Shown: positions 5,578 through 33,858 of the stretch, piece by piece
Layout: each line of letters opens with the position of its first letter
How positions within the stretch are numbered: the first letter of the stretch is position 1
Source: Verrucomicrobiales bacterium
Lineage (GTDB): Bacteria; Verrucomicrobiota; Verrucomicrobiia; Limisphaerales; RI-55
Reading direction: 5' to 3'
Assembly (NCBI GenBank): GCA_003484235.1
Contig: DNDP01000461.1
Coordinates: forward strand, 27,684 to 67,977
Length of the DNA stretch: 40,294 bases
Translations under genes and position numbers: made by a program
Notes under the pieces: model-generated
The model's input: only the letters and a program-made list of their open reading frames with translations
Database searches by the model: none
What the model was told of the DNA's origin: nothing

Positions 5578-5653
5578 GTCCGTAATGAGGTCGCAGCCTA
5601 ACGAAGTTGACTCCGGGGCTCAAACATTCCCACGCACGGCCAAAGGACAATTT

Positions 5654-6199
5654 ATGAAGATCGAAGAAATGCACATCGGCATGGCGGTCCGGCACCCGCA
5701 GTACGGCACCGGTACGGTCAAGGCGCTGACCGAGCAAAGCGCCAGCATCCAGTTCAGCGATGCGATACGGGAAGTGTCACCCGGCCTGAGCGACCTGCTT
5801 CCGGCCGAGGCGGCCGCCTCGGTCAAGGGTCTTGAGCTGCCCCTCAAACAATTTGTAGCCGACATCGTCGAGTCCACCGTGAACCGGTTCGGCATCAGCA
5901 AGCCGGATGAGGTGGTCGGCCAGCTGGCCGCCAGATGGCGAAAGGGCACCCTGGTGCTCAAACCTGCAGATCCCACCCTGCAGCCGAAGGACATCGAGCT
6001 CGAGGTCTTCTTCCACAAGATCGTGATGATGCGGAACAACCTCCGGGTGCTGGAACAGAAGATCAACGCCATGGATGAGCTTTCGGCTGCCGACAAGTTC
6101 GACCTCCAGCAGTACATCACGCGCTGCTACGGCTCGATGACGACCTTCAATGTGCTGTTCCGGGACAAGGAGGACCAGTTCTCCACGCAAAAGCGATAA
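5654..6199 (+). CDS. Hypothetical protein with a Tudor/DUF3553-like N-terminus
   Basis: The ATG at 5654 is preceded by AAAGGAC. It is divergent from the U32 gene with a 76-nt spacer. The N-terminus MHIGMAVRHPQYGTGTVKAL resembles the small beta-barrel found at the UvrD/PcrA C-terminus and in DUF3553. I do not recognise the rest. The longer listed ORF start at 5456 overlaps the U32 gene and has Arg/Ala-rich shadow-like composition. Confidence 0.6.
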   Translation: MKIEEMHIGMAVRHPQYGTGTVKALTEQSASIQFSDAIREVSPGLSDLLPAEAAASVKGLELPLKQFVADIVESTVNRFGISKPDEVVGQLAARWRKGTLVLKPADPTLQPKDIELEVFFHKIVMMRNNLRVLEQKINAMDELSAADKFDLQQYITRCYGSMTTFNVLFRDKEDQFSTQKR

Positions 6200-6360
6200 G
6201 CGTTCGGGAGCTGCGATGCGGCATTCGACGGTGAGCCGCCGGGAGAAAGTTTGGTTGGAATGGCCCGCGACTAGCTAAACCGGGCCAGCGGGTGTGCTTT
6301 TAACCGGACGGGAAACTGGTCGCCGTGGTGGGGGCCGACCTGTCCCAGCCCGCCCATACT

Positions 6361-8391: not shown

Positions 8392-8420
8392 CCGGCGCGG
8401 CACCCCATTTGACCGAAAGC

Positions 8421-8448
8421 GGTGGCCTGACAACCCGGCCACCTTTTT
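8421..8448 (+). terminator. Rho-independent terminator after the hybrid kinase gene
   Basis: GGTGGCC (8421-8427) pairs with GGCCACC (8437-8443) across a 9-nt loop. TTTTT (8444-8448) and then CGTTTC follow. The hairpin starts 30 nt after the TAG stop at 8391. Confidence 0.6.
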
Positions 8449-8525
8449 CGTTTCTGGAATGGTCGTTGAAATTCAACGCCACGTTCTGGAAGCTCCCGCC
8501 CGTGGCTGACGAACTGACTCTCACC

Positions 8526-12915: not shown

Positions 12916-13563
12916 TCAGATCAGCTTCTGCTCCACGGCATAGCGGGTGAGCTCGGCATTGGTCTTGAACCCCATCTTGCGCAGTATCCTGCTCCGATGC
13001 GTGCTGACGGTCTGGATGGTGATCGAGAGATCGAGGGCGATTTCCTTCAGGGGCTTGCCGACGGCCAGCTGCAGCATGATCTCGTGTTCCCTGGGAGAGA
13101 GCAGTTCGTGCGGAAGAGGGGCCTCACTCCGGGTCATGCGTCGGGCAAGCAACTGTCCCAGGGCGTCACTTACGTACTGCTCGCCTCCGAGGATCTGCTC
13201 CACCGCCTTCACCAGCTCGTTTGGCGCCAGCATCTTGGTCAGGTAGCCGGCTGCGCCCGCCTTCAACACGCGCACGGCATACTGCTCCTCCGGGTGCATG
13301 CTCAGGACAAGCACCGGCAGCGAGGGGTGCGCCTGATTGATGTCCCGCAAGAGATCCACCCCGGTGCGTCCGGGCATGGAGATGTCCAGCACCACCAGGT
13401 CAGGCGAATTGGTGTCGATCACCCGCATGGCCGTCGGCGCGTCACCGGCCTCGACGACCCTTGCCTGCGGCAGGCTCTCCATCAGGATGTCCCGCACGCC
13501 CCGGCGAAAGATCGCGTGGTCATCCACCACCACGATGCAGAGGGTCTTCTTGCGCTGGCTCAT
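12916..13563 (-). CDS. NarL/FixJ (LuxR-type HTH) response regulator
   Basis: The receiver domain reads IVVVDDHAIFRRG..LVVLDISMPGRTG..LSMH. The C-terminal LuxR HTH reads LSPREHEIMLQLAVGKPLKEIALDLSITIQTVSTHRSRILRKMG. Its ATG (13561-13563) overlaps the kinase stop as ATGA. Confidence 0.95.
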   Translation of the reverse strand: MSQRKKTLCIVVVDDHAIFRRGVRDILMESLPQARVVEAGDAPTAMRVIDTNSPDLVVLDISMPGRTGVDLLRDINQAHPSLPVLVLSMHPEEQYAVRVLKAGAAGYLTKMLAPNELVKAVEQILGGEQYVSDALGQLLARRMTRSEAPLPHELLSPREHEIMLQLAVGKPLKEIALDLSITIQTVSTHRSRILRKMGFKTNAELTRYAVEQKLI

Positions 13564-19500: not shown

Positions 19501-19943
19501 AGCAGGAACAGCCCGAGCGCGAAGGCGATTGCGGCGTTGAACTCATCGTAGATGGTGCGGCTCCACCACACGGCGTCGATGCGGCCGATGGTCGCGCCGC
19601 GATGCACCACGGGAGCCGTAAACTCCAATGCGGAAATCAGGCCCACCCGTTCCAGCCACCTCTCAGCGCGGTTCAGGGGATGTCCGCTGAAGTGCGCAAA
19701 CTGTTCACCGTCGTCCCGCACGATGTGAAGCTCCCGATAGCCGCCGGCCTGCGCTGCAAGCAGCAGGTAGTTGGTCAAGGTCTCGGGCTGCAGCTGCCAC
19801 AAAGCATCGGCAACGTAGGCGGCATGTTGACGAACCCGTTCAATCCCCTCCCTCCGGACGCTGTATTCCTTCCATCCCAGATATGCGAGAAACAACAGCA
19901 ACCCCGTGCCGGCCAGCAGCCAGTTTTGGTTTCTGGTTCTCAT
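13560..19943 (-). CDS. Giant (2127 aa) membrane sensor histidine kinase: 2 TM + about 11 PAS-like + about 2 GAF-like modules + HisKA_3 + HATPase_c
   Basis: TM1 is LLAGTGLLLFLAYLGW and TM2 is AAIAFALGLFLLERHL. Module junctions recur in the style DIT[ED]RK.AE..L..SE.R.R. (for example ERKLAEERLL, ERKRAVEALRISEERHR, ARKKAEETLQRRE, DRRRAERALRESEERF). The NarX-type H-box is IAREVHDQIGQSLTGL, the N-box is ESLTNVVRHA, G1 is DDGVGM, and LGLLGMRERAAAVGG is present. ATGA overlaps occur at both ends. Confidence 0.95.
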   Translation of the reverse strand: MRTRNQNWLLAGTGLLLFLAYLGWKEYSVRREGIERVRQHAAYVADALWQLQPETLTNYLLLAAQAGGYRELHIVRDDGEQFAHFSGHPLNRAERWLERVGLISALEFTAPVVHRGATIGRIDAVWWSRTIYDEFNAAIAFALGLFLLERHLRVRDGNRLLELRVDERTRELHESEARYRALSDSSLLGIVVRTGEGIEYANEAAARMAGLENPGAVKEGDPWRRFVAPEFHEELRDREERMLRGENVPVHPGWVGIRSDGTRRWIQSGSTRIDWRGRSAVLVFMIDITERKLAEERLLHERDLSNQMINSLPGVFYLFDRAGEFLRWNENLCTVTGRTGEELRQIHPREFFREADRHRIEKFIDQAFAGGQAETEAEMLNRAGEGRPFFLTGRRIELEGRPCLMGMGIDVFERKRAVEALRISEERHRITAQMTSDFVYVLRVAPSGELALEWISESFSRITGYSMDEYRSLTDPFEIIHTEDRALMAETCRRNLAGESTAIEARLITRGGRARWVIAYAQPHWSADCSRVEMIYGAAQDITARKKAEETLQRRERLLRLFVEHSPAAIAMFDRDMRYLGASNRFCSDYGLPIQNLVGRLHYEVFPEISERWKAIHQRCLGGAVEMCEEDAFQRLDGRIDWVRWEIRPWEESAGVIGGIVLFSEVVTEKKRAKDRERQLLAILEATPDFVGIADHQGRLAYVNRAGREMMGIGEKEDLTALRLRDYVSEETGNYIETVGIPAAIRDGHWHHETELVARDGREVPTSQVLLVHRDDQGRLEYVSTIARDISERRQAGEQLRVKDLAIRSAVVGICFTDLLGRVTDANPAFLRMWRIPNLEDLLGKPVMELGSDPGRVTEILAVIQRQGSWEGEEVARRLDGSPLIVQMATALIRDHDGKPVGMMGTFTDVTEARQTQDRLRESELRFRTLFDRSPAGVALIDRETHGIVECNEMTARLLGYPVSELLALRLEELGADESVAGMMRELRQLAPGSSGSFETRMRTRDGQLRDFAATTHLLELDDRQLVYTILIDITDRRRAERALRESEERFAAAFRANPAGISLTTFEADTCLDVNDAFLAIVGRPRSEIVGRTGLSVGLYSSEVQRREILATVWQRGATSSAESPIVRGDGRVVHTLRSVERVTVNGEDCLLTLLVDIGERKRVEQLLTTFARLGRELNAAKSARDAARSILDNADQLLGWDSCSLSLYSPESDRVSSVLAMDTMDGQRRECPPGYNDAPPAPIARRTIEMGAQLLLRQGPVAEDSDLVPFGDTSRRSASLMFVPIRDQQRTVGVLSIQSYRPKAYGQRELEVLQSFADHCGGALNRIRVQEALQESEERLRRAVEGGGVGLWTWIVATNELEWNEQLKRTFGLPIDAGDLTLDWFVSTIHPEDRSGVERAFRGALAEHREFHAEYRIRWPDGSDHWIEALGTGVYDEAGTPVQMRGAALEISARKASEIALRESRRMLRTVIDNIPQGVFWKDRESRYLGVNRLAARTFGFEEPEELIGRTDSEIGSLTPEEREQFVRVDREVIASGRERRGVVESATLADGSEIWLETSKLPLRDETGQVFGVLGTWQDVTERRQRELDLRLRNAVLGALADAAGELLRAAHWRDGVQSTIEALGRATGVSRVYLLELVSAVVDNEELRLQGEWSGPKVGAAFGEAVATSGGVPGSAFAEWFGELKLGNPVIARISELPPGKRALLGDRQVFSFAAFPIHVGSSWWGFVGFDDCAAERAWSEAEINALRTTAGLFSAAIERHRAAGAIRESEERLRLAIQAARQGLYDLDVRTGRVTVSPEYAQMLGYDPALFLETNEKWIERLHPDDRDQVSARFQDYLQGRIKRYQVEFRQRSRSGSWVWILSIGQIVERDAAGNPVRMLGTHTDVTRLKQAELALAESEQAMRALAGSLQQAREAERTLIAREVHDQIGQSLTGLNLDIAWAQRLLEKHRTAADFDQLMQHRLGRMSTLVDETVMSVQRLCSDLRPGILDDLGLVAALEWQADEFAEQTGIPCEVKAPKSVDGLSSDQSTVLYRIFQESLTNVVRHARATRVTVRLVRSEGSVRLEVSDDGVGMPASVRNHASSLGLLGMRERAAAVGGEVRFDSGAGKGTTVAVQLPLKS

Positions 19944-21352: not shown

Positions 21353-22381
21353 TCACATTCCGTTGAGCGCATCGATCAGTTCCCGCAGCCGGCCGTAATC
21401 CTTTCGGTTGAACGTAAACGCGATGCGCGGAAGATTGATGAAGTCCTCGTCCTCGCGTTCATCGGCTGTGGCCTTGATCGCGTGAATGGGTTCGCCGGCA
21501 ACGATGTCCGCAAAGTCCTCGTTCAGCGCCTTGATCGCCGTCTCGGTGATCGGATGCAGCAGCCTGATGACATAGAGATCTCTCACGAACCGGCTCGAAT
21601 GATAGTTGCGGTAGAAACGGGTGATCACCTTCACCGCGTGATCCACGTCGTCCGTGATCTCGTAGAGGTTCAGGTCATCTTCGGAAATCAGCCCGTTTCG
21701 CAGCAGGTGTTCCACGACGTGCTTGTCCCAGGCCTTCCAATAGGTCCCTCCCGGCTTGTCCACCAGCAGCAGCGGCATCAGTCGGCTCTTGCCCGTCTGC
21801 ATGAGGGTCAGCGCTTCGTAACCCTCGTCGAGGGTGCCGAAGCCCCCCGGAAAGAGGACCACCGCGTCGGACTGCCGGATGAACTGCAGTTTTCGCGTGA
21901 AGAAGTAGCGGAACGTGATGAGTTTCTTGTCCCTCTCGATGACCGGGTTGGCGGACTGCTCCCACGGCAGCCGGATGTTGCAGCCGAAGCTGTTTTCGGC
22001 ACCGGCCCCTTCGTGCCCCGCCTGCATGATCCCGCCGCCCGCGCCGGTGATGACCATGAAACCGGCCTCGACCATTTTCCGGCCGAATTCAACCGCCTTC
22101 TGATATTCGATCCGATCCGGTTTTGTGCGCGCCGAGCCAAAGACGGTCACCTTGCGTTTCTGATCAAACGGTTCGAACAATCGGAAAGCATATCGCAGTT
22201 CCCGCACCGCCGTCTGGATGACCCGCACATCGCCGCGCACCTTGACATCGGTGAGCAGTTTGAGCGCGTTCTCGATCAGGTCCTCTACCAGATCCTCATT
22301 GCCGCCCCCTCCTTTGATCAGGATCAACTCACGGATCTTCGCCTTTAATTCATTGTCCGAGCCGCCGGCATTCTTTCCCAT
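21353..22381 (-). CDS. LOG-family / TIGR00730-type Rossmann protein (nucleotide 5'-monophosphate nucleosidase-like) with N- and C-terminal extensions
   Basis: The core motifs are VFGSAR, ITGAGGGIMQAGHEGA and LFPGGFGTLDEGYEALTLMQTGK (the PGGxGTxxE signature). An N-terminal extension of about 75 aa and a C-terminal extension of about 100 aa flank the core. The start is ATG at 22381. Confidence 0.9.
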   Translation of the reverse strand: MGKNAGGSDNELKAKIRELILIKGGGGNEDLVEDLIENALKLLTDVKVRGDVRVIQTAVRELRYAFRLFEPFDQKRKVTVFGSARTKPDRIEYQKAVEFGRKMVEAGFMVITGAGGGIMQAGHEGAGAENSFGCNIRLPWEQSANPVIERDKKLITFRYFFTRKLQFIRQSDAVVLFPGGFGTLDEGYEALTLMQTGKSRLMPLLLVDKPGGTYWKAWDKHVVEHLLRNGLISEDDLNLYEITDDVDHAVKVITRFYRNYHSSRFVRDLYVIRLLHPITETAIKALNEDFADIVAGEPIHAIKATADEREDEDFINLPRIAFTFNRKDYGRLRELIDALNGM

Positions 22382-22447: not shown

Positions 22448-25400
22448 TCAGCGATGCAACAGAACAGTCACGGCGTCGCCCAGGTCGTCCGCGGTAACCA
22501 GATCGGGGCGACCGTCACCGTTCAAGTCCGCCAACTTCGGCGCCAACGAGGCACTGCCCATGTGGTAGGACTGGACCGCCCGATAGCCGCCGCCGGACGC
22601 GGCCAGTCGGACGTCAGCGCCATTCAAAAGATCGGGCAGGCCATCTCCATTGACGTCGGCCACCATGATGTCACCGGCGTAGCCACCCAGCACCAACTGT
22701 TCGCCACCGAAATCTCCCCCGCTGCCGCCGGGGTAAATCACCAAACTCTCCGCGCCTGCCTGAAACACCACCGCCACCATGTCCCGCCTTCCATCGCCGT
22801 CCAGATCCGCCCAATCGAGACTGGAGACACTGCCGTTGTTCAATGGCGTGACCACCTCCGTCTCTGTCAGCGTTCCGGCGCTGCTACCGGACAGAATCTT
22901 GATCACTGCCGGCCCGCTGACAAACACAGCCGCACCAACGTCATCCACACCGTCGCCATCGAAGTCGCCAACGATCCGTTCGTAGGAGGTCCCCCCCAGC
23001 TCATGCTGCGGCCGGACAAAAAAATCTGCACCGCTGTTGAGGAACAGCTGCAACTCACCGGAGCTGCCGAAAGCCACCAGGAGGTCGGTCAACCCGTTGC
23101 CATCGAAATCACCCATCAGCACGTCGTCTGGCTGGGCATGCAGATCCATCACCGGTCCGGCAGTGAAGCCGCCCACACCATCGCCATAAAGCACGTGCAA
23201 ACGATTGCTGGAACTCCCCGGGAGAAAGTCCGGTCGCTGGGTCACCACCGCGAGGTCAAGTGACTGGCCTGCGTTCAGCCGCCCCACGGCAAGACCCTCG
23301 ACTTGAGCGCCGACCGGCACTGAAGACATCGCCAGGAATCCGCCTCCGGCCTGCCCGATCAGGATGTCCACCACGTTCTGGCTTTGGTTGCTGACCAGAA
23401 TGTCGGGTCTGCCGTCGGCATTCACATCGGCCACCTCGAAGTCGCGGGGGCTGAACTGGCCCGGATCGAAATTAAACTGCTGCCGCGTGTCAAAGCGATT
23501 GCCGGGAAGGCCCCGGCTGACAATGGCGCCTCCCCCACCGGAGTTTATCAGGCTCACCACATCACGCATGCCGTCGCGGTCCACATCAAACAGCAGGCAG
23601 TTTTGATTGCCCGAAGCGGTATGAATTGGACTGCCGGCCGTGAATGTTCCGTTGCCGCCGTTCCACAGGACGGCATGGTGGCCCGCGGCAAGATGGGCCA
23701 CGATGAGGTCCAAGTCGGTGTCGCCATCCAGATCGGTTACCAGCATGCCCGCCGGATTGTCGCCTGTGGCGTAGTCAGCCTTTCCTTGAAGCGTTCCGTT
23801 GCCGTTTCCCAGAAGCACGGAAACGCCGTCGCTGGTCCGGTTGGCGGTGATGATGTCGACGATGCCGTCCCCGTTCACATCGCCGGCGACCACCCGTTGC
23901 GGCGAAGCGCCGGTCGGGTACATCACCTTGGCAGCATGGGTTCCATCACCATTGCTCAGGAATACTGCGACGCGGCTGCCACCCGTTTCCAAGGTCACCG
24001 ACAGGTCGGGATGCGCATCGTTGTTCAACAGGGCGGCCACCACGTCGGTTGGGCGGTACTCCGTGTCGAGACTGGTCGGCGTTTGAAACGTGCCGTCTCC
24101 GTTGCCCAGCAGGATCGAAAGCGTTCTTGCGTTGTTGTTGACCGAAATGATGTCCAGGTGCGGGTCGTCATTGACCCGCGCCAGCACAACGCGCCGGGGC
24201 GACACCCCCAGATCATGTTTGGCATTGGAGGTGAACCCCCCCAGGCCATTTCCGAACAGAATCTCGACCCGGTTGTTGAACTCGTCTGCAAGCACGACAT
24301 CGGGAAAGCCATCGCCATCGAGCCTTTCCAGGGTGATGTCACCGGAGGAGCCGGCGTCCGCGATGGCAACAAGGTGGGGCGGCGCAAAGGACCCGTCTGA
24401 ATTGCCCAAGGTTACATTCAGCGCGCCATTGAAGGTCACCAGGTCGATGACACCGTCGTTGTTGAGATCGGCGGCTTCCAGCTCACCGCCCTCGCCGACG
24501 GCGAAGACTGCCGCCGGATACAGCCCTCCGGTGGTCGGCCCCTGGTCGGCCGTTTCCGGATCGGTTCCCTCGACGTACTCCTGGCGGGCATTGCGTCCGT
24601 CGTCGTCGGAGTCAGCCAGGGCGTCTCCGGCGTTGAGAGGATCAAGGATTGCGGAATGATTCAGTTCATATACGTCGTCGATGCCGTCGCCGTCGCTGTC
24701 CAACGGAACCGAGCTGCGCACCCGTTTGACCAGGTAAAAGGAGCGTTGCTGCTGGTCGGCGGAGCGGGGATCCACCAGCTCTCCGTGGCCATCCACGCCG
24801 GCCTTGATGACCAGCGGCGGCTCGACTCCGTCAACCTCATCACCGCTGCACAGGAGGTAGTAGTATTCCGGGTTCGACGGAAACTGGACATGGCTTCGGC
24901 CCTCGGCATCGATGGTGAAGTCGGTGATCCGCAATAGCTCGCCATAATCGCCATATTCCACCATCACACCGCCTGAGTATTTCAGGGGATCACCACTCAT
25001 CGACTCCGCCAAAGTGTCCGGGCCGTAGGCCACCGCATCCGCAAGAATCTGGTAGGTGACCGTAAACGTCTCACCGACCCCGATGCCGGAGAGATCCAGA
25101 ACACCGCGGTAGGCCGGGGTTTTGTATTGGGCGCCGATATAGGAGTACAGAGTGTAACCGGGCTCCCCGCCGATGACCTGGCCCGTGTCCGGATCGAAGA
25201 TCTCCCGACCGGGCACTTCTGCCTCGCCAAGCAGGCATTCCCAGGTCCCAACGATGGGACCCGTATCGTGGCTCATCTGATAGTTCATCGCACAGAAATC
25301 CTTGGCGATGACCCGGCGTTTACTGGAAAGACTGCCCTTGCCGTGGAGTCGCTTGTGAACCTCGAACTGGGTGATGCCCTCGACTTTGGCAATCAGCTTC

Positions 25401-25897
25401 CATGAGGCATGAAGCTCCGTGTCGCCATGGCCACCGCCATCGACGAGGCGCAGGAGACCGGGGTTGACGACGAATTCGAAAGGCGTGGTCTCATCCACCC
25501 GAACGAAATCCCGGGTCCAGATCAGATTGATCTGGTTCTCGACCTGTACTCCGGTTCCGCCACCGGTACCGGTGGCCAAATAGGCTCGAAATGAGCCCTG
25601 GTCATTGGCGTAGGCCGACACTCCCCCAAAGGTTGGATAAACGTCATCCGGTCCGCCCCCCGGGATCGCGCAGCCGTTCCCGGCCCCGCACGGAAGCGAG
25701 AACCCCGGTGAATCGTCGAGCACGAAGACGACTTCACTGTCGTTGATGGACACGCTTTCCCCCAGGTGAAGGGCGCCGTCCCGTAATACGCCGCTGGTAA
25801 TCGTGACGTTGAAATCCTGTGCGGCGGCCGTGCCCGCAACGAGACCGGCGAGCAGTGACGGGATTGCGGCGACCGTGTGTGATGGGCATTTTCTCAT
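22448..25897 (-). CDS. Secreted FG-GAP/VCBS-repeat protein (predicted double 7-bladed beta-propeller) with an unknown N-terminal domain and thrombospondin-type-3-like Ca-binding linkers
   Basis: The ATG at 25897 gives the signal peptide MRKCPSHTVAAIPSLLAGLVAGTAAAQ. An N-terminal region of about 400 aa is unrecognised. It is followed by DSDGDGIDDVYE and DSDDDGRNARQEYVEGTDP, then 14 FG-GAP-type repeats. The listed start at 25960 is TTG. Confidence 0.9.
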   Translation of the reverse strand: MRKCPSHTVAAIPSLLAGLVAGTAAAQDFNVTITSGVLRDGALHLGESVSINDSEVVFVLDDSPGFSLPCGAGNGCAIPGGGPDDVYPTFGGVSAYANDQGSFRAYLATGTGGGTGVQVENQINLIWTRDFVRVDETTPFEFVVNPGLLRLVDGGGHGDTELHASWKLIAKVEGITQFEVHKRLHGKGSLSSKRRVIAKDFCAMNYQMSHDTGPIVGTWECLLGEAEVPGREIFDPDTGQVIGGEPGYTLYSYIGAQYKTPAYRGVLDLSGIGVGETFTVTYQILADAVAYGPDTLAESMSGDPLKYSGGVMVEYGDYGELLRITDFTIDAEGRSHVQFPSNPEYYYLLCSGDEVDGVEPPLVIKAGVDGHGELVDPRSADQQQRSFYLVKRVRSSVPLDSDGDGIDDVYELNHSAILDPLNAGDALADSDDDGRNARQEYVEGTDPETADQGPTTGGLYPAAVFAVGEGGELEAADLNNDGVIDLVTFNGALNVTLGNSDGSFAPPHLVAIADAGSSGDITLERLDGDGFPDVVLADEFNNRVEILFGNGLGGFTSNAKHDLGVSPRRVVLARVNDDPHLDIISVNNNARTLSILLGNGDGTFQTPTSLDTEYRPTDVVAALLNNDAHPDLSVTLETGGSRVAVFLSNGDGTHAAKVMYPTGASPQRVVAGDVNGDGIVDIITANRTSDGVSVLLGNGNGTLQGKADYATGDNPAGMLVTDLDGDTDLDLIVAHLAAGHHAVLWNGGNGTFTAGSPIHTASGNQNCLLFDVDRDGMRDVVSLINSGGGGAIVSRGLPGNRFDTRQQFNFDPGQFSPRDFEVADVNADGRPDILVSNQSQNVVDILIGQAGGGFLAMSSVPVGAQVEGLAVGRLNAGQSLDLAVVTQRPDFLPGSSSNRLHVLYGDGVGGFTAGPVMDLHAQPDDVLMGDFDGNGLTDLLVAFGSSGELQLFLNSGADFFVRPQHELGGTSYERIVGDFDGDGVDDVGAAVFVSGPAVIKILSGSSAGTLTETEVVTPLNNGSVSSLDWADLDGDGRRDMVAVVFQAGAESLVIYPGGSGGDFGGEQLVLGGYAGDIMVADVNGDGLPDLLNGADVRLAASGGGYRAVQSYHMGSASLAPKLADLNGDGRPDLVTADDLGDAVTVLLHR
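22451..24538 (-). repeat. Array of 14 protein-level FG-GAP/VCBS repeats (D-x-[ND]-x-D-G-x-x-D-h-h cores)
   Basis: The repeat cores read in order are ADLNNDGVIDLV, ERLDGDGFPDVV, ARVNDDPHLDII, ALLNNDAHPDLS, GDVNGDGIVDII, TDLDGDTDLDLI and FDVDRDGMRDVV. They continue ADVNADGRPDIL, GRLNAGQSLDLA, GDFDGNGLTDLL, GDFDGDGVDDVG, ADLDGDGRRDMV, ADVNGDGLPDLL and ADLNGDGRPDLV. Spacing is about 45-55 aa, usually with an intervening LxGNGDGTF-type strand. Confidence 0.8.
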
Positions 25898-26037
25898 GGC
25901 GTTTACCTTCCATACCGGGCGAAGTCGGGAATCTTTCAGCGAAAGTTGAACCTGCGCCAAATAACACCTTTAGCCCTGCGGGCAGGCGCAAAGGCACCGG
26001 GGTTCTCAGTCGGATCACTACTCTCCCCAACACTATC

Positions 26038-29000
26038 TCACTGGCTCCCAGAGCCCGTGCCGACGACGGCTGTTACCAACCGGTAGAACTTGATGGGCAC
26101 ATCCTGCACCGCGACCAGCTGCACGCGTTCCTGCGTGGGGCTCAGCGGCTGCACGGTTTCCGTCAGCCCGGTCGCCTCCAGCCACGCATCCAGATCCTCG
26201 CTGCTCTCGAAGGTGACGCCCAGCGACTGCGAAAACGTGGTACGATCGAACTCAATGATCACCAGGGACTGGCCGTTGATTTCACCCGCCGAAATGGTGA
26301 CCGGCGACGTTGTCTCGGCCACATAGGGATTGCGGCCGAAGAAGGCCTCGAAGATGGCGCTCAATCCATCACCGTCGTCGTCCGCATCCGGATCCGCGCC
26401 GGCACCGGTGAGCTGGTGGTATTCGACCCAGTCAGCGAAGCTCTCGATCAAGCCACGCTCCAAAGCCTCGACAGCCAGAATCGTCGGGGCGCTGTAGTCG
26501 AGCGGCGCCGGGACCGTAGCGCCAGGCGTGAAGGTGAGCGGAGTCTGAACGAATGCCGCGGGGCTGAAGCTGCTGGAAAATGTCTGAGGTGCGCCAGGGT
26601 TTTCAATCCGGGAGAGCATCATGAACTCTTCGGTCGTGGAGGTGTGAAAGACCTGCGGCTGGAGGTAGAGGCTGTCCAGGCCGCTGTCTTCGTGGAAACG
26701 CATGAGACCTTCCCAGGGCAGTTTCAACAGCATGGGCGCACTCTGTCCGCCGCTGCCCCACGGATACGCCGAACGCGTGGTGGCCAGCATGGCGAGACCG
26801 TCTCCCGCGTCGGCCAGGTCGAGGCAGATCTCCGCGTCCGGACCGTCGAACACCGAAAACAGTTTCACCCCAAGCTCGTCGGTCAGGCTCATGACCCAGC
26901 CCGCTCGTTCGGCGCCGAGCCCCGTCACTCCGCAGGCCCAGAGACCGCCTTCGACCCACTCGAGCCCGGTAACCAGGTCGTAGGGAGAATTGCCGCCGTC
27001 AGGCAGTTCGTCCTCCCAGTCGGGATCGTCACCGATGCTCACGTGATCCAGCAGGTTGCCCTCGGCGTCGAGTTTCACGAACAGGTTCACCGGACGGTCC
27101 TGGGTGACGATCCGGCCCACGGCCCCGGCGGCGTAAATGGTGCCATCGGGCGACTCCAGCACCTCCTCGAGATTCATGCCCCAGCGGCTGGCATAGACGT
27201 TCGCCCACAGCAACAAACCATCCTCCACATCGATCTTCATGAGCAGCCCGCTGGAGGTGGCATCCTTGAGGACGTTTGCGGAATCGGGCGTGCCCATCGG
27301 AGGCGGAGCGACATTGGCGGCCGACTCGCCGGACAACAGCAGCATGCCATCGGCGGTCAGGGTCATGCCATTCACCTCGTCGTCGCCATCGAGGGCATAG
27401 TAGGCGGCCCACAGGATGTTTCCGAGGGCGTCGAGCTTGATGAGGGCCGGATCACTGGAACTGATCGAGCCATGGTGAATGTGGCCGGCCACGTAGAACT
27501 CGGGTTGCCCGAGGCCATCTTCACCTACCACGATTTCCTCAACCGTGATGGACAGCCCTGGCCGTTGACTGAACGACCATTCGCGGTTGCCGTCGCCATC
27601 GAACAACGCCACCACAAGGTCGAGCCCCTTGAGTCCTGCGGTGACGAAACGGCCATCCGGCAGCACCGCACCCACCTGCGCGCTCTTGTTGAGGCCGAGG
27701 TCCTTCATCCACACCAGATTCCCGGCGGCATCAAACTTGGCCACGGCGGTGCGGCTCACGTTGGCGCCACCCACGATCAACGTCTCCGCGCCTGCCGGAC
27801 CGTAGGGAGGCAGCGGCAGGACGAATCCCTGATCAAACGTGCCGAAGCTGGTCGTGGGCTGGAACACCCGCGCCCAGCGCACCCTGCTGCCGCTCAGCTT
27901 GTCAAAGCCCTGCAGGGCCGGTCGCGGCCCCGCCAGTTGGGGAACGGGCACCAACGGTCCGCCGGCATCGCGATGAAAGAACGTGGCCACCGGTTGCGAG
28001 ACCTCAACCCCCACTACATTGAAACCGAGCAGGCTGAGATCGAAACGCCCAAACAGCTCCGCGTCGGCATGGAGTGTCCACCAGGGATTTTCGAGCGGAG
28101 CCACCTCCATCTCCGCCACGGCCCGAATGCCGAGCGCCGGTCCCGCGGTGGCGAGACCGCCGGCCACGCTGACGTTGATCTCGAGGCGCGCGTCCACCCA
28201 GGCGCTGGCACTGGCCGCAAGGTCGTCAAAGACCGTCGGATCCGACACCCTTGGTGCAATGAACTCCTGAATGGGAGTGGCGAAGGTCTGGCCGTTGTCC
28301 CAGCCGACCTCGGCCCCGACGGTGATCGCGGATTCGAGAGGAATCGTCAGGCCGGCCGGTGCCGTGGCCTCGGCGCCCACCGCGAGCACAAAGGTCGGGC
28401 CGATCGTGGCAGGCACTCCGGCGATGGTAATCGGTACTCCGGGCAGGGGGATGCGGGCCAGCTCCTTCTGCTTGTCCACGAGCGGCAGGGTCGTGTTGTC
28501 GCTGCTGCCGGTCGTTTCGAGCAGCAGGCTGGCGGTGATGCCCGCGTCGATGCCCACGCTCGCGCGTTTGATGGCAAAATCCCGGAAGGAGATCTGAAAC
28601 CGAAGTCCCGAGGAGCGGAGCAGCACCTCGCCGCTCAGCTGCAGGTAGTCCGTGATTTTCAGCTCGTTGAAATGCCACGGGATGGCGCTCAACCCCCGCA
28701 GGCCCGCCAGCGCAGCGCTGTTCGGGTCCTCCGCCTCGACAAAGGCGGCGGCCTCCGCACGGTCCTCCTGCTCCTCTTCGGTGTAGGTGTTTTCGAGCGG
28801 CGGATCCAGCAGGTCGCGCCCGCTGCCATTGAAGTTTTCGTCGTCTGCCAGGAACGTGCCGCTCTTCAGGATCTCGAGCAGTTCACGCTTGTGGCCGGCC
28901 ACATGAGTCTTGTCGCCAACCTGCGTCACCGAGGCGATCTCGAAGGGGATCTGCTGGCTCAAATAGGGAACCGCAAAGCCGCCGGTCGGTGGCGGTTGCT

Positions 29001-30774
29001 TGGGCCGGTATCCGCCCGACGCAGTGTCGGCAATCAACAGGTCTCCGGGCTGGAGGCTTTGGATCAAGTCGGTCGCCTCACCAAAGACCAGCACCAGTTC
29101 GCCCAGGCCGTTGCCGGTGGTCGCTTCGAAGGCTTCATCGGTCGGCGCGTCGATGAACCGCGTGGGTGCCGAATAGACCTGCTCCTCGAAGCCGGCGACC
29201 TGCAGCAGTTCACCGCTGAGGATCATCCCGCGGACGGCGGCAAGGTCGGCGTTGGCCACCCGCACCACCAGTGTGTCCGCGGTGCCGGCGGTGGCGGCAC
29301 CGAGTTCGGGCAGCGTGGCGTAATTCAGCTGCGGATCGGTCACCGCGGCGGTCGCCGGCAGGAGTTCACGGTCCACCAGCAGCGCCAGCTCGAAGTAACG
29401 GCCACTGTCGGTGTTCAGGAGATCCGCAGAAAACTCAATGTCCGTCTCGTCGGTCCCGACCGGCGTTTCGCCGAGGATGCGGATGTTCTGGAGGGTGATG
29501 TCGAGCGGCTTCGCGATGAAGGTGGACGGCGCCAGCGGTGCACGGTACGGATCCGTTCCGGCAAGAAGCTCGGCCTCGTCGGTCCGGCCGTCATGATCCG
29601 AATCGAGCAACGCCACTTCGCGGGCGCGCTGGTAGATCCAGCCCAGATGGGGCTGCACCAACGTGAAGCCCGCGACGTTGCCATAGACGGAGTCGGCGGT
29701 GGCGGCGGCGCCGGGATTGAGGAACGAGGCAATGCCGTAGATAACGGGTGTGCCGGTGAGGTAATACTCGTCCGGCGCGGGGAAATTGGGAAAGGCCGAC
29801 CAGAGAAAGGCGGGGCCGCCGCTGTCCCCTTCTCCGCCGATGAAATCGCAGACGGTGGCCGCAAACAAACCGTTGGCCGGATCGATGGGACCCGCGCAGG
29901 CGACCGGCGGGGAGGTCACCTCATTCTCGAAGCCCATCGTGCTGAAGGCGCTCAGCGCGACAGGCACGTCGTTGGTCGTCCGACCGTTTACCGGATCGTC
30001 GCAGACAACCTCGCTGAGTTCCCATTTGTCAAAGTCCATGAACGCCACGGAGGCTGCGGCGGTGGGAAAGGGGACGTAGGCGGAGTTCGATCCGTCGGTC
30101 GTCTGGCCGCCACCCACCACGTCGAGCACGTTCACGCCGGCGGACAGGAAGTCGGGAAAGCCGTTGCCACCGGCGTCTCCGTCGCCTTCCTCGCCAAAAC
30201 CCGCGATCAGCACCCCTACGGAGCCGGCAAACGGCGTCGCGGACAGACGGGCGAAGGTGGTGACTGCCGCCACGGGCCCGGCCAAACGGACCAGCGCGAT
30301 GTCGTTGCCCAGGAGATACTGTTCCTTCTGCCAGTCTTCGTGGACGTGAAACTCGGCCACCCCGATCACTTGTCCGCCTTCGGTCTCACACTCGAGGCTG
30401 GTGACATTGATACCCGCGCCCTGACCGTCGGTGCCCTGGAGTGCGTGCGCGCAGGTAAGCACCCATTCGGAGGCGATGAGGGTTCCGGACCACGTGAGAT
30501 AGTCGGGCACCTGGTCGCCGTCGACATCCACCGGCGCGTTGTTCCGGATCCGCACCACGGTCTGGTTCAGGAGCGGGTTGCCCGCCTCCCGGAGCATCTG
30601 CGTGATGATGTTCTGGTCGTCGGCATTGAGGTTGAAGGCCCGGTTTTCAGCGGGCTTGATCACCGCACCGGTCCGGGCCGCCAGCAGGCAGAACAGCACC
30701 GTGAGCAGGATGGTTCGGCATCGATTCCGCGGGACGGCATGCGCCATACCGCCCTGGGAGGCTTCAATTCTCAT
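26038..30774 (-). CDS. Giant (1578 aa) secreted multidomain protein: N-terminal trypsin-like (S1) serine protease + unknown central region + beta-propeller-like repeats + C-terminal Ca-binding linker and beta-sandwich
   Basis: The signal peptide is RTILLTVLFCLLAARTGAV. The S1 triad motifs are WVLTCAHAL (His110), GNDIALVRL (Asp158) and GGEGDSGGPAF (Ser318, codon AGC at 29821-29823). DSDHDGRTDEAELLAGTDPY follows. Repeats have the form h-h-K-h-D-x-x-G-N-h-h-W (AKFDAAGNLVWM, ALFDGDGNREWS, IKLDALGNILWA, MKIDVEDGLLLWA, VKLDAEGNLLDH). The C-terminal part contains DPDADDDGDGLSAIFEAFFGRNP and ends ..KFYRLV. The start is ATG 30774, with ATG 30747 as an alternative. Confidence 0.9.
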   Translation of the reverse strand: MRIEASQGGMAHAVPRNRCRTILLTVLFCLLAARTGAVIKPAENRAFNLNADDQNIITQMLREAGNPLLNQTVVRIRNNAPVDVDGDQVPDYLTWSGTLIASEWVLTCAHALQGTDGQGAGINVTSLECETEGGQVIGVAEFHVHEDWQKEQYLLGNDIALVRLAGPVAAVTTFARLSATPFAGSVGVLIAGFGEEGDGDAGGNGFPDFLSAGVNVLDVVGGGQTTDGSNSAYVPFPTAAASVAFMDFDKWELSEVVCDDPVNGRTTNDVPVALSAFSTMGFENEVTSPPVACAGPIDPANGLFAATVCDFIGGEGDSGGPAFLWSAFPNFPAPDEYYLTGTPVIYGIASFLNPGAAATADSVYGNVAGFTLVQPHLGWIYQRAREVALLDSDHDGRTDEAELLAGTDPYRAPLAPSTFIAKPLDITLQNIRILGETPVGTDETDIEFSADLLNTDSGRYFELALLVDRELLPATAAVTDPQLNYATLPELGAATAGTADTLVVRVANADLAAVRGMILSGELLQVAGFEEQVYSAPTRFIDAPTDEAFEATTGNGLGELVLVFGEATDLIQSLQPGDLLIADTASGGYRPKQPPPTGGFAVPYLSQQIPFEIASVTQVGDKTHVAGHKRELLEILKSGTFLADDENFNGSGRDLLDPPLENTYTEEEQEDRAEAAAFVEAEDPNSAALAGLRGLSAIPWHFNELKITDYLQLSGEVLLRSSGLRFQISFRDFAIKRASVGIDAGITASLLLETTGSSDNTTLPLVDKQKELARIPLPGVPITIAGVPATIGPTFVLAVGAEATAPAGLTIPLESAITVGAEVGWDNGQTFATPIQEFIAPRVSDPTVFDDLAASASAWVDARLEINVSVAGGLATAGPALGIRAVAEMEVAPLENPWWTLHADAELFGRFDLSLLGFNVVGVEVSQPVATFFHRDAGGPLVPVPQLAGPRPALQGFDKLSGSRVRWARVFQPTTSFGTFDQGFVLPLPPYGPAGAETLIVGGANVSRTAVAKFDAAGNLVWMKDLGLNKSAQVGAVLPDGRFVTAGLKGLDLVVALFDGDGNREWSFSQRPGLSITVEEIVVGEDGLGQPEFYVAGHIHHGSISSSDPALIKLDALGNILWAAYYALDGDDEVNGMTLTADGMLLLSGESAANVAPPPMGTPDSANVLKDATSSGLLMKIDVEDGLLLWANVYASRWGMNLEEVLESPDGTIYAAGAVGRIVTQDRPVNLFVKLDAEGNLLDHVSIGDDPDWEDELPDGGNSPYDLVTGLEWVEGGLWACGVTGLGAERAGWVMSLTDELGVKLFSVFDGPDAEICLDLADAGDGLAMLATTRSAYPWGSGGQSAPMLLKLPWEGLMRFHEDSGLDSLYLQPQVFHTSTTEEFMMLSRIENPGAPQTFSSSFSPAAFVQTPLTFTPGATVPAPLDYSAPTILAVEALERGLIESFADWVEYHQLTGAGADPDADDDGDGLSAIFEAFFGRNPYVAETTSPVTISAGEINGQSLVIIEFDRTTFSQSLGVTFESSEDLDAWLEATGLTETVQPLSPTQERVQLVAVQDVPIKFYRLVTAVVGTGSGSQ

Positions 30775-30901
30775 AATTCAACGGCCAGATGTATCGATTC
30801 TGACGGCTCCGCGGGGCGGCCGGCCGGACTGCACCAGGATACTCTGTGATCCATACCCGCCGTAACGGAAAACCTTTCACGCCAACGGTCGTTTGCCATC
30901 G

Positions 30902-33244
30902 TCATTTGGGTGGAGAGACTGCGTGGTCGGGCCGGATGGCGGCTTCCCAAATGACGTAAGCTGGAGAAGCACGCCAGTCCTCGTAAGGTTTTCCCGGACC
31001 CATCCGGACGATCTCAGGCGGACTGGGCATGTCGGCGAGCATTGCCTCGATCTCCAGCTTGTTCGCGGTGAGATCCTCCTGCGTCAGCAGGGCATCCATG
31101 AACACCGCGCGCAGGCCGGCTGGCATCATGCGGCTGCCGGTTTCCTCGACTTCCGCCAGCCCGTCCCAATCAACGACAGTCCGCGGCGTGCCGGGGGCGG
31201 GGGCGGGCCGTCCCTGACTTGTCGGCAGGTTGATGAATGCCTGCTGCACCCGGTACCGATTGTTGTCTCCGGACCAATTGAGGTTCGTCAGGATGTACTG
31301 CGCTTCCAGGGCAAAGCCAAAAATCACGCTGTCGACCTCAATAACGCTGTCCTTGATCCGCACCTCGACGGAATTGGCGGGTGCCAGGTCATCCAGCCGA
31401 AGCAGCAGCCGGTTGATGAACACCGAATCTTCGATGGTCAGGCGCACCGGTTCGGCGGTGCGATTCTCCACCTCGCAGGTCTCCATGCCAAACATCAGTG
31501 ACTGCATGATGCGCACCTCGGCTGCAAACGGTTCGACCGGCCGCCGGTCGGAGGTCACATTCTGCAGCACCAACCCCACTGCGCGCTCGACCGGAATCAA
31601 CTCGCTGTACGCAATTTCCACGAGCGGTGCATCGTTGGCCTCCACGCAAAAGGCCCGCTGCCGGTATGCGCGCGGCACCAGGCTGCGCTTCTGCATCCGG
31701 CAGTGCCACAGCCGCAGTGACGCGCCGGTGATCCGGATCAACGGCGGAGCCAGCACGTTTGGCAGCTGATGTTCCAACACCAGCCCCTCCAGCGTCAGGG
31801 CGCTGTCCGTGTCAAACATCGGCGCGTCGCTCGAAACACAGCGCAGGACGGGCCGGGCTCCGACGGCGTTGCGGATGCGCAGGGGCTTCCCCCGCACCGT
31901 CAGCGGCTGCACTTCAATCAGCCCATCACCGTGCACTTCGATCAAATCACCGGGGGTGGCAAGTTCGACCGCCTCGGCAAGCGAGCTTGCAATGGTGCCG
32001 CCGGAACGCAGGGTGAACCCGACCGGCCGGTTCGCATCCCCCGCGTTGGGATGTGGGTCCGGCCACACGATCCCGACGAGCACTGCAAGCAGGGCGGCGG
32101 CCGCCGTCGTCCACACCACAAGGTTGGCCTTCTTCGGGCGCGCCAGTTTCCGAAATGTTGCCAACGTCTCCGCCGCCGTTCCCCGCCGGGTCGGATCCGG
32201 GGACATCAGGCGGCCGATCAAGCCGGCGAGTCCCGCCGAGAGCTCGGAGCGTTCGCGGCGGATGGGTTCCACAATACCCTTGCGAACTTTGGCCAGCAGC
32301 TCAGTCATCCGGTCGGCCACGAACGGCGGGTGGCCGATCGCCAATGAATACAGTGTGCCTCCGAGACTGAACAGGTCGGACGCAACGCCGACCGGTGCCC
32401 CCGCCGCCTGCTCCGGCGACATGAACTGGGGCGTGCCCGCCAGCAGATGCCCATCCGTGGTGTTCGTTTGATTCACCGAATGCACGAGCCCGAAATCGGT
32501 GAGCCGCACCCGCGCCAGACCGTCTTCCAGAAGAATGTTCGCGGGTTTGATGTCGCGATGAATGAGGCCCACGGCATGGGCCGCCACGAGGGCGGAAGCA
32601 AGCTGCCGGCCCACCCTGATCACCTCGGACTCGCCCAGACGGCCATGCGTGTCCAACCATGCCTGAAGGGAAGGACCGGCGAGGTGTTGCATCACGATGA
32701 AGGGCAGTCCCGCCTCCTCTCCCACCGAGTGGATCACCACGACGTGGTCGTGCTGCAGCGCCGCCGCCGCGCGGGCCTCCCGAAGAAACCGCTCGCGAAA
32801 CTCGATGTTCGCGGCCAGATGGGGTGCCAGCACCTTGACGGCTACCACCCGATCCAGCTGTCGATCGTGTGCCTTCAGGACGATTCCCATGCCACCGCGG
32901 GCGACGATCTCCAGCACCTCGTAGCCGCCAAAAGTTCCGATTGCCTCAGATCCCGCGGAAGGCTGCAGGTATGGGGCAATGTCCCAGTCAATGCCCTCAC
33001 CGGCGGCTCCTTCAACCCCCTTCAGACGGGACACCAAGCGGCGCAGCTCGATGGATTCGTTGCGGGAATCGTCCCGTTCCGCAAAGACGAAGGTGGTGGT
33101 GCCGTGACCGGAAAGCTGCTCCAGCAGCTGTCGGCACGGCTCGCAGGTGTCCAGGTGTCCTGCAAGCTCAACCTGCTCCGCCTCCGGCACCGCCCCGCTG
33201 AGAAGCGCCCGCCATGTGGCCGGAGTGGGGCACACCGCATTCAT
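30902..33244 (-). CDS. Transmembrane Ser/Thr protein kinase with an N-terminal ZAS-type (HxxxCxxC) anti-sigma-like segment and a C-terminal extracytoplasmic beta-helix-like domain
   Basis: Kinase motifs are ARGGMGIVLKA, VAVKVL, HRDIKPANILL, DFGL and GTPQFMSPEQ. A single TM segment reads LVVWTTAAAALLAVLVGIVW. The ectodomain of about 380 aa has beta-helix-like periodicity (LIEVHGDGLIEVQPLTVRGKPLRIRN..LTLEGLVLEH..IRITGASLRLWHC). The ATG at 33242-33244 overlaps the sigma gene stop TGA (ATGA). The listed upstream start at 33271 is TTG. Confidence 0.9.
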   Translation of the reverse strand: MNAVCPTPATWRALLSGAVPEAEQVELAGHLDTCEPCRQLLEQLSGHGTTTFVFAERDDSRNESIELRRLVSRLKGVEGAAGEGIDWDIAPYLQPSAGSEAIGTFGGYEVLEIVARGGMGIVLKAHDRQLDRVVAVKVLAPHLAANIEFRERFLREARAAAALQHDHVVVIHSVGEEAGLPFIVMQHLAGPSLQAWLDTHGRLGESEVIRVGRQLASALVAAHAVGLIHRDIKPANILLEDGLARVRLTDFGLVHSVNQTNTTDGHLLAGTPQFMSPEQAAGAPVGVASDLFSLGGTLYSLAIGHPPFVADRMTELLAKVRKGIVEPIRRERSELSAGLAGLIGRLMSPDPTRRGTAAETLATFRKLARPKKANLVVWTTAAAALLAVLVGIVWPDPHPNAGDANRPVGFTLRSGGTIASSLAEAVELATPGDLIEVHGDGLIEVQPLTVRGKPLRIRNAVGARPVLRCVSSDAPMFDTDSALTLEGLVLEHQLPNVLAPPLIRITGASLRLWHCRMQKRSLVPRAYRQRAFCVEANDAPLVEIAYSELIPVERAVGLVLQNVTSDRRPVEPFAAEVRIMQSLMFGMETCEVENRTAEPVRLTIEDSVFINRLLLRLDDLAPANSVEVRIKDSVIEVDSVIFGFALEAQYILTNLNWSGDNNRYRVQQAFINLPTSQGRPAPAPGTPRTVVDWDGLAEVEETGSRMMPAGLRAVFMDALLTQEDLTANKLEIEAMLADMPSPPEIVRMGPGKPYEDWRASPAYVIWEAAIRPDHAVSPPK
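33134..33157 (-). other. H-x3-C-x2-C motif (HLDTCEPC) in the kinase N-terminal segment, matching the zinc-binding anti-sigma (ZAS) signature
   Basis: I verified the codons on the minus strand: CAC CTG GAC ACC TGC GAG CCG TGC. The motif sits about 30 aa from the kinase N-terminus, upstream of the catalytic domain. Confidence 0.55.
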
Positions 33245-33858
33245 GCAGCCACCACACGAAGGTCGTCCCAATCGCCGGTCGCGTGCTCAACCGCCAACCG
33301 AAGCTTCGCAATCACCCTGGAGCGCGCGATGTACACGGCGCCTTCGGTCAGGCCAAGCGCCCGGGCGACCTCGCCGATCGGCTGGTTCTGCACCGCCGTC
33401 TTCCAGAACGCCTCCCAGGTCGGCACTTTGAACTCGGCGCGAACCCGGTCGGCCGCCCAGTGAAACATCCGCAGCCGGTACTCGTGATCCCAGTCCAGTT
33501 CCTCCGAGGAACCGGGCTGCTCCTGGATGAGCTGCATCATCGTGGTGCCGCCCATCGCTGCCGGCTGCCGTTGCCGGCGGTCCCAGAAACTTTTCAGCTT
33601 GTTGCGGGTGACGGTAAACAGCCAGTTGCGGAATCCGCCGCGGTCCGGTTCATATTCGAATTTCTGGATCGCCCCGGCAACCGCCTTCATCACCTCCTGC
33701 GCCACATCGGCCGCATCCACCTCCTGCAGGCCGCGTTTCCGGCAAAACTGAAAGATCAACGGGGTATAGAGGTCGACAAAGCGCTCCCAAGCCGCGTGAT
33801 TCTCCACATCACGAAGATTCAGCAGCAATGTTGCGCGAGTTTGCAGTCCCTGATCCAT
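33241..33858 (-). CDS. ECF-type sigma-70 family RNA polymerase sigma factor
   Basis: The translation starts MDQGLQTRATLLLNLRDVENHAAWERFVDLYTPLIFQFCRKRGL. Region 2 reads DAADVAQEVMKAV..FRNWLFTVTRNK. Region 4 HTH reads IGEVARALGLTEGAVYIARSRVIAKLR. The listed start at 33900 is TTG, so I prefer the ATG at 33858. Confidence 0.9.
   Translation of the reverse strand: MDQGLQTRATLLLNLRDVENHAAWERFVDLYTPLIFQFCRKRGLQEVDAADVAQEVMKAVAGAIQKFEYEPDRGGFRNWLFTVTRNKLKSFWDRRQRQPAAMGGTTMMQLIQEQPGSSEELDWDHEYRLRMFHWAADRVRAEFKVPTWEAFWKTAVQNQPIGEVARALGLTEGAVYIARSRVIAKLRLAVEHATGDWDDLRVVAA

Follow-up and report, generated by a model that had tools for sequence, protein, structure and literature searches.

The 40,294-nt stretch of Verrucomicrobiales contig DNDP01000461.1 analysed here (assembly GCA_003484235.1; hereafter the window) carries, across positions 22448-33858, four consecutive minus-strand genes encoding an extracytoplasmic function (ECF) sigma factor, a membrane-spanning Ser/Thr kinase and two giant proteins with putative signal peptides, one with an S1 protease domain (the S1 giant) and one with FG-GAP repeats (the FG-GAP giant) (Table 1). 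All four open reading frames (ORFs) were verified, as were the domain calls underlying the original prediction that these genes form a cell-surface sensing and effector module (Sigma70_r2, Pkinase with an N-terminal HxxxCxxC, Trypsin and FG-GAP_3). The stop codon of the sigma gene and the start codon of the kinase gene share an ATGA, and the spacers that follow measure 127 nt (kinase to S1 giant), 140 nt (S1 giant to FG-GAP giant) and 66 nt (FG-GAP giant to a LOG-family gene). From the linkage of these genes in related loci and from a promoter-like motif conserved upstream of the giants, we consider it probable that the locus encodes a signalling unit in which an ECF sigma factor is linked to a kinase and controls a local regulon of giant secreted proteins.

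Table 1. Genes, protein domains and promoter-like motifs at the locus (window coordinates; domains are given at the positions that encode them).
Feature	Coordinates	Strand	Basis
ECF-type sigma factor, 205 aa	33241..33858	(-)	ORF call; Sigma70_r2/TIGR02937
Kinase gene, 780 aa	30902..33244	(-)	ORF call; Pkinase
Predicted zinc-type anti-sigma domain (ZAS), kinase N-terminus, ligands C5, H30, C34, C37	33065..33244	(-)	Conservation; profile matches
Hanks-type Ser/Thr protein kinase domain	32159..32923	(-)	Pkinase; catalytic loop HRDIKPAN
Single transmembrane segment, aa 373-395	32063..32128	(-)	Sole Kyte-Doolittle 19-residue window >1.6 in the kinase
Extracytoplasmic sensor domain, aa 400-780, predicted right-handed β-helix	30905..32047	(-)	AlphaFold2 (AF2); Foldseek
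Promoter-like motif 1, TGAAAGGTTTTCCGTTACGGCGGGTAT, 78 nt upstream of S1-giant ATG	30853..30879	(-)	Position weight matrix (PWM), 40.7 bits
S1-protease giant, 1578 aa (database copy: start = Met10)	26038..30774	(-)	Trypsin Pfam match
Promoter-like motif 2, TGAAAGATTCCCGACTTCGCCCGGTAT, ends 14 nt before FG-GAP giant ATG	25912..25938	(-)	PWM, 38.1 bits
FG-GAP giant, 1149 aa	22448..25897	(-)	FG-GAP_3 match
LOG-family gene	21353..22381		TIGR00730, 101.6 bits (cut-off 96.35)

Alignment of the regions upstream of the giants revealed a 27-nt promoter-like motif of fixed spacing, TGAAAG-R-Y-T-Y-N10-S-S-GGT-W-T (in short TGAAAG-N16-GGTAT). When up to 2 mismatches are allowed the 40-kb window contains exactly two matches, one in each of the spacers preceding a giant gene, against a chance expectation of 0.23. 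The same motif with the same spacing is found upstream of the FG-GAP giants of related loci L008, L012, L013, L009 and L016, and upstream of every FG-GAP giant that has a sigma and a kinase gene next to it; the L013 locus was identified from its kinase and not from its giant, and its site came to light only once the pattern was already set. With a PWM built from seven sites and scanned over 289 kb, all motif sites score 36-46 bits and the next best position 14.2 bits. Upstream of the FG-GAP orthologs of L007 and L010 the motif is missing, and in L011 it is degenerate; none of these three orthologs has adjacent sigma and kinase genes. It is likewise absent upstream of the S1 homologs in L001, L002, L004, L006 and L019. 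A shared ECF-type -35/-10 motif, proposed as a check on the original prediction, is therefore present in both spacers as well as in the orthologous spacers and is highly specific. Its architecture is that of ECF promoters, with a -35-like pentamer and T-rich tail, a 16-nt spacer and a short -10-like element; the Bacillus SigW consensus, for comparison, is TGAAAC-N16-CGTA. Because each spacer holds the motif, the two giants appear to be co-regulated from separate promoters of one type, and as both carry the predicted promoter they should be co-induced and need not be co-transcribed. An RNA element was considered as an alternative identity for the motif and rejected, since RNAalifold predicts no pairs over it and no Rfam family maps to the spacers. 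L009 contains a second copy of the motif (5290-5316, plus strand) upstream of a gene for a PATR-repeat protein of 805 aa (5457-7874), with an esterase-like gene (7962-9833) next in line, suggesting a larger local regulon in that Verrucomicrobia metagenome-assembled genome (MAG).

The same three of the four genes recur together in other contexts. L008 has, on a single strand, genes for a partial sigma factor, the kinase and the FG-GAP giant, uninterrupted by an S1 gene; in L012 the C-terminus of the kinase directly precedes the FG-GAP giant; and L013, reached via a search with the kinase sensor domain, contains sigma factor, kinase and a 2053-aa FG-GAP giant. Order and strand in these loci are as in the window, minus the S1 gene. 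In L009 the sigma-kinase pair is convergent with a giant in which an S8 subtilase domain is fused to the FG-GAP repeats, and L016, likewise reached via the sensor domain, has the same convergent arrangement (the L009 and L016 kinases are 87% identical). Since the recurring contexts contain sigma factor, kinase and FG-GAP giant and not the S1 giant, these three genes constitute the conserved unit. The four-gene order put forward in the original prediction is not conserved, the S1 giant being missing from every other sigma-kinase-FG-GAP locus: of the anticipated synteny, the linkage of sigma factor and kinase to the FG-GAP giant stands (L008, L012, L013 and L009/L016) and that of the S1 giant does not, so that a sensing and effector unit exists with a conserved membership of three genes and not four. 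The LOG gene was ruled out as a member, since the downstream genes differ in every related locus. L010 is uninformative upstream of its FG-GAP giant. Scans with the sensor-alignment profile yielded 4 loci from genome contigs and 2 from metagenome contigs, and L014, L017 and L018 are contigs too short for neighbourhood comparison. The contigs of L014 and L016 are labelled as Bifidobacteriaceae/Bifidobacterium MAGs and encode a Verrucomicrobia-type kinase; because the L016 kinase is so close to that of L009, a Verrucomicrobia MAG, the two contigs appear to be mis-binned.

The window sigma factor matches Sigma70_r2 (E 1.1e-11) and, weakly, r4_2 (E 0.007), and its score against TIGR02937, the model of the ECF superfamily, is above threshold (64 bits, cut-off 42.9), NCBIfam placing it at superfamily level only. 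Region 2.2 reads DAADVAQE, corresponding to the canonical DxxDxxQE, and DxxDxxQ[ED] is kept in the sigma orthologs of L009, L013 and L016 (DASDVAQD or DAADVAQD). For the loci that share the order of the window (L008, L012 and L013), orthologous sigma factors are 49-63% identical to the window sigma factor by BLASTP. Two features define the characterised kinase-linked group ECF43. The first, an uncharged QTTA/STTA in place of DxxD together with a phospho-acceptor Thr, is found neither in the window sigma factor nor in its orthologs; the second, a neighbouring gene for a Hanks-type Ser/Thr kinase, is present in the window through the ATGA overlap with the Pkinase gene. The retention of DxxDxxQE in region 2.2 indicates that the sigma factor is not ECF43-like, and because the residues for RNA polymerase binding are retained it should be intrinsically competent. 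In L013, the sigma gene of the unit is immediately preceded upstream by a Mutator-family transposase gene (PF00872, E 5e-33; about 2479-3430, minus strand).

The kinase matches Pkinase with an E-value of 2.8e-42 (145 bits) and contains the catalytic loop HRDIKPAN. Its N-terminus carries the potential ligand pattern C5...H30-x3-C34-x2-C37, which is retained in the kinase orthologs (30-48% identical to the window kinase); H30, C34 and C37 do not vary across 30 related kinases, in which C5 is conserved at 90% or more. Searched against the PDB, a profile built from these N-termini matches the solved anti-sigma factors DdvA (E 7.7e-7), RslA (3hug_B, 3.4e-6), RsiW (5.6e-5) and ChrR (about 2e-3). On the strength of the conserved ligand pattern and these profile matches, the kinase N-terminus is assigned as a ZAS domain, with predicted binding of both sigma factor and zinc.

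The 380-residue C-terminal region of the kinase, beyond the transmembrane segment, has no Pfam match. An AF2 model of this sensor domain, obtained with an 18-sequence alignment, has a mean predicted local distance difference test score (pLDDT) of 86.4 and a predicted template modelling score (pTM) of 0.89. Its top Foldseek matches in the PDB are almost all right-handed β-helix proteins (polysaccharide lyases, glycoside hydrolases, pectin methylesterases and phage tailspikes), and one sensor ortholog matches Pfam Beta_helix (E 0.0037); the domain is accordingly modelled, and here predicted, as a right-handed β-helix. An exhaustive search of representatives places the sensor domain in a family of 497 clusters at 50% identity (E<=1e-3). 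Among its top 150 relatives, 89 contain the kinase catalytic loop, and 49 of these also have an HxxxCxxC near residue 29.

The FG-GAP giant comprises a signal-peptide-like segment, an all-β head of ~390 aa, two repeats resembling thrombospondin type 3 (TSP3) repeats and 14 FG-GAP repeats. The FG-GAP_3 match scores 197 bits over 12 stretches, and the predicted count of 14 is borne out by the calcium loops, which recur with a period of ~49 aa: a regular expression recovers 13, and one more is accommodated by the single gap of double length. For the head, profile search against the PDB found no relative, and its AF2 model (pLDDT 56) gave no Foldseek match below E 0.028. Four full-length orthologs share 54-56% identity with the giant, and longer relatives (30-32% identity) have an S8 subtilase domain in the same polypeptide, Peptidase_S8 being fused to the FG-GAP giants of L009, L010 and L016 (1823-2003 aa). 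These S8-fused giants are the fused counterpart of the separate S1 giant of the window. Since protease and FG-GAP repeats are thus paired in two forms, S8 fused in L009, L010 and L016 and S1 as a separate, apparently co-regulated giant in the window, the recurrence suggests that the pairing is functional. In two of the three S8-fused giants, pentapeptide repeats are also present, on the N-terminal side of the TSP3/FG-GAP portion.

Besides a signal-peptide-like segment and a trypsin domain, the S1 giant has two TSP3-like repeats and a large body that is uncharacterised. The S1 protease head is confirmed: the Trypsin match is above threshold (40.8 bits, cut-off 20.6) and the catalytic His/Asp/Ser triad is intact (TCAHAL, NDIALV, GDSGGP) and conserved in 17 of 18 homologs. 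The propeller-like body ascribed to this protein fared less well, with faint propeller matches (PQQ_2 or DUF5122) in just 2 of 17 family members. The signal peptides proposed for both giants correspond to a single N-terminal hydrophobic segment in each, judged by hydrophobicity only.

The S1-giant family has 18 members among 5.8 billion proteins, and in all seven other contexts compared (P0002, P0003, P0006, P0008, P0010 in two places, and P0016) neither the kinase nor an FG-GAP giant is nearby. A 69%-identical homolog sits between a histidine kinase and an amidase; the P0003 homolog has a different ECF sigma factor upstream, then two small ORFs; those of P0010, P0008 and P0006 have unrelated neighbours; and the P0016 homolog belongs to a MAG that also has the sigma-kinase-FG-GAP unit, but on a separate contig. 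An S1 giant between kinase and FG-GAP giant is found in the window only and in none of the other sigma-kinase-FG-GAP loci, and by this comparison of gene neighbourhoods we assign it as a window-specific insertion. Orthologs of a small GAF-HisKA-HATPase histidine kinase occur in L001 (2-166, plus strand) and L011 (168-1433, plus strand), their last 54 residues being 83% identical, and lie directly upstream of, and on the same strand as, an S1-giant ortholog in L001 and an FG-GAP-giant ortholog in L011; the intergenic DNA behind the histidine kinase is dissimilar in the two loci. This shared histidine-kinase slot is an indirect second link between the two giant families.

The original prediction had further linked the two giants through shared modules, namely acidic DxDxDG linkers next to β-sandwich-like segments. 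The DxDxDG motifs quoted for both proteins are present in their translations. Shared β-sandwich modules were not detectable, BLASTP of one giant against the other returning nothing at E<=1e-3, and when the quoted segments were compared directly only TSP3-like repeats of 12-24 residues aligned (E 0.05-0.11). The shared modules therefore reduce, as far as their sequences allow them to be classified, to short calcium repeats of the TSP3_bac type (PF18884), a generic Pfam repeat. Against the TSP3_bac model the repeat of the window S1 giant scores 20.5 bits, below the cut-off of 25, and that of the L013 FG-GAP giant 21.8 bits, while the repeats of the window FG-GAP giant are undetected by the model; of 17 S1-family members, 14 match TSP3_bac at E<=0.1, the best at 3.6e-6. 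Among the 116 ORFs that reach 200 aa or more in a small and biased sample of ~290 kb, 12 contain DxDxDG, all of them from the two giant families.

These features can be assembled into a working model. In the resting state the sigma factor would be held at the membrane by the ZAS domain at the N-terminus of the kinase. The periplasmic β-helix domain would sense an extracytoplasmic cue, most plausibly a polysaccharide or an envelope glycan, and the activated kinase would free the sigma factor by phosphorylating the anti-sigma segment, the sigma factor or both. The released sigma factor would then transcribe genes with a GAAAG-N16-GGTAT promoter, which in the window would be the S1 giant and the FG-GAP giant, each from its own promoter, so that both proteins would be made together and exported. 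The FG-GAP giant would represent the ancestral, conserved target and the S1 giant a lineage-specific recruit, supplying in trans a protease activity that in distant relatives is fused as the S8 subtilase.

A different way of operating the same genes would be the ECF43-style switch, in which the sigma factor is inactive until phosphorylated by the kinase and the N-terminal Cys/His motif is a zinc ribbon or redox sensor rather than an anti-sigma domain. An adjacent Hanks kinase is indeed a hallmark of ECF43 and of the other kinase-linked groups, which typically do without anti-sigma factors (PMC7826278, PMC13147305), and the zf-HC2 match of the kinase N-terminus is sub-threshold. However, the sigma factor keeps DAADVAQE where ECF43 members have uncharged QTTA/STTA with a phospho-acceptor Thr, and the profile of the kinase N-termini matches four solved anti-sigma factors with E-values down to 7.7e-7, leaving a switch of this kind unlikely. 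The common strand, the short spacers and the sigma/kinase ATGA overlap would also fit a single four-gene operon read from a promoter upstream of the sigma gene, the spacer motifs then being sites of another regulator or otherwise conserved, and neither spacer (127 nt or 140 nt) contains terminator-like sites. Yet in L009/L016 the FG-GAP giant is convergent with the sigma-kinase pair, and so cannot be co-transcribed with it, and still keeps the motif, which argues against a single operon as the only route; the motif moreover has a bipartite ECF-promoter architecture with its 16-nt spacer, and the S1 gene is missing from the orthologous loci. We regard an operon of this form as quite improbable. 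That independent secreted giants have come to lie by coincidence beside a common regulator pair, in a genome rich in both, would be in keeping with the unlinked S1 homologs in seven of seven other contexts, with the FG-GAP orthologs of L007 and L011 that are without the regulators, and with the orthologous histidine kinase that precedes the giants of L001 and L011 instead. It is hard to reconcile with the recurrence of the sigma-kinase-FG-GAP adjacency among proteins just 30-55% identical, with a 27-nt motif kept while the flanking DNA diverged, and with the sole two motif copies of the window falling in exactly the two spacers, and we give coincidence very little credence.

Several observations nevertheless weigh against a sigma-kinase signalling unit that controls the giants. 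We infer the assignment of the motif to this sigma factor from co-occurrence alone. No such promoter-like motif was found upstream of the sigma genes, indicating that the autoregulation typical of ECF sigma factors is absent, and in the FG-GAP gene of the window and in L013 the motif ends just 14-16 nt before the ATG, implying a very short leader. The linkage is not universal, since sigma factor and kinase are not near the FG-GAP orthologs of L007 and L011, and the independent loci are few, about five lineages if L009 and L016 are counted as one. Regarding the kinase, its N-terminus alone scores 19.5 bits against Pfam zf-HC2, below the cut-off of 22.2, and the Foldseek scores of the sensor model are weak (E at least 3.6e-3, TM score at most 0.46); the match probability is up to 1.0.

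More tentatively, the signalling unit could exemplify a wider and as yet undescribed mechanism among the kinase-linked ECF sigma factors of Verrucomicrobiota and Planctomycetota that have a canonical region 2.2. In such a mechanism the anti-sigma domain would reside inside the Hanks kinase, so that one polypeptide would sense a periplasmic glycan through its β-helix, hold the sigma factor and, through phosphorylation, let it go. Such an architecture would occur widely, since this sensor type alone is shared by at least 49 clusters at 50% identity; what it would conservedly produce, from a GAAAG-N16-GGTAT promoter, are giant FG-GAP propeller proteins whose proteases are either attached or co-regulated. 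We consider this generalisation possible and on balance doubtful.

The original prediction did not match the locus to a named system. That view must be revised for its regulatory half, which belongs to a class already known, that of ECF sigma factors with Hanks-type kinases (ECF43, ECF59-62, ECF217), and is upheld in that the locus differs from the characterised ECF43 mechanism. Pairing of ECF sigma factors with Hanks-type kinases has been described for ECF43, ECF59-62, ECF217, ECF267 and ECF283, in which anti-sigma factors are typically absent (PMC7826278). Members of ECF43 carry QTTA/STTA in place of the acidic DxxD of region 2.2, and Thr phosphorylation restores RNA polymerase binding (PMC8999054, PMC13147305, PMC8103513); the other kinase-linked groups keep a DAED-like motif, so that their mechanism must differ by a route that is unknown (PMC8999054, PMC7826278). 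The ECF43 pairs EcfP-PknT of Vibrio parahaemolyticus and EcfK-PknS of Xanthomonas citri resemble the window in having a sigma factor beside a single-pass Ser/Thr kinase with a large extracytoplasmic domain, and in having neighbouring envelope or secretion genes as targets (PMC8999054, PMC13147305), the targets in the window being predicted. They differ in that their sigma factors are without the acidic DxxD and need Thr phosphorylation, whereas the window sigma factor has DAADVAQE; in that no anti-sigma domain is reported for their kinases; and in that their targets are type VI secretion system (T6SS) or polymyxin-resistance genes in place of giant FG-GAP and protease proteins. The Planctomycete/Verrucomicrobia groups ECF59-ECF62 and ECF217 resemble the window, likened by description and not by group models, in having a co-encoded kinase, no separate anti-sigma gene and matching phyla; no kinase-borne anti-sigma domain, promoter motif or FG-GAP target appears in the descriptions examined, and all three are found or predicted in the window.

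With the class I zinc anti-sigma factors (RsrA, RslA, ChrR, RsiW, DdvA) the window kinase has in common the ligand pattern C/H-x(~25)-H-x3-C-x2-C. Known ZAS domains either stand alone or are joined to a simple membrane anchor or sensor, whereas the putative ZAS of the window shares its polypeptide with a Ser/Thr kinase domain, a transmembrane helix and a predicted β-helix sensor. In Mycobacterium tuberculosis the Hanks kinase PknB modulates SigH and its ZAS anti-sigma factor RshA by phosphorylation. There, kinase and anti-sigma factor are separate proteins and the kinase is global, whereas in the window a single polypeptide appears dedicated to the adjacent sigma factor. Phosphorylation of SigH is mentioned in PMC13147305. 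The FG-GAP/VCBS (integrin-α-like β-propeller) and bacterial TSP3 proteins resemble the window giant in their FG-GAP calcium-loop repeats and DxDxDG linkers; this family has not been described as coupled to a sigma/kinase pair and a specific promoter, as the window giant appears to be. No description of an anti-sigma/kinase fusion was found in the literature searched, which did not extend to key planctomycete studies or to the supplement of the ECF reclassification, so that a prior description is possible. With that proviso, and relative to the literature examined, a canonical sigma factor with a kinase-fused anti-sigma domain, a β-helix sensor, a defined promoter, and an FG-GAP giant as conserved target with lineage-specific proteases may be new.

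Planctomycetota and Verrucomicrobiota are rich in kinase-linked ECF sigma factors, and only the ECF43 mechanism has been worked out. The locus supplies a concrete hypothesis, the kinase-fused anti-sigma domain, together with a conserved target gene and a predicted promoter that one genome carries twice, and thereby makes sigma-kinase binding, phospho-dependent release and promoter activity directly testable. It also offers a first regulatory handle on two giant secreted families of unknown function, one with just 18 known members, and suggests that proteases and FG-GAP propellers have been functionally paired more than once.

Among named relatives, those nearest to the window locus come from Verrucomicrobiota MAGs, and a PSCyt1/PSCyt2/PSD1 protein is encoded in the window neighbourhood. 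Just downstream of the LOG gene lies a 6S RNA gene (SsrS, RF00013; 21021-21202, minus strand; 77.9 bits, gathering score 46.4). A separate two-component system (12916-19943, minus strand) lies about 1.4 kb farther downstream than the LOG gene, on the far side of the 6S RNA gene and of a 296-aa ORF that matches no Pfam family, comprising a 2127-aa histidine kinase of the HisKA_3 type with many PAS and GAF domains and then a LuxR-type response regulator. Finally, an Arg/Gly/Ala-rich ORF of 1676 aa (25819-30849, plus strand) runs antisense to the entire S1-giant gene and exceeds it in length; it is most likely an artefact of high G+C content and not a gene.

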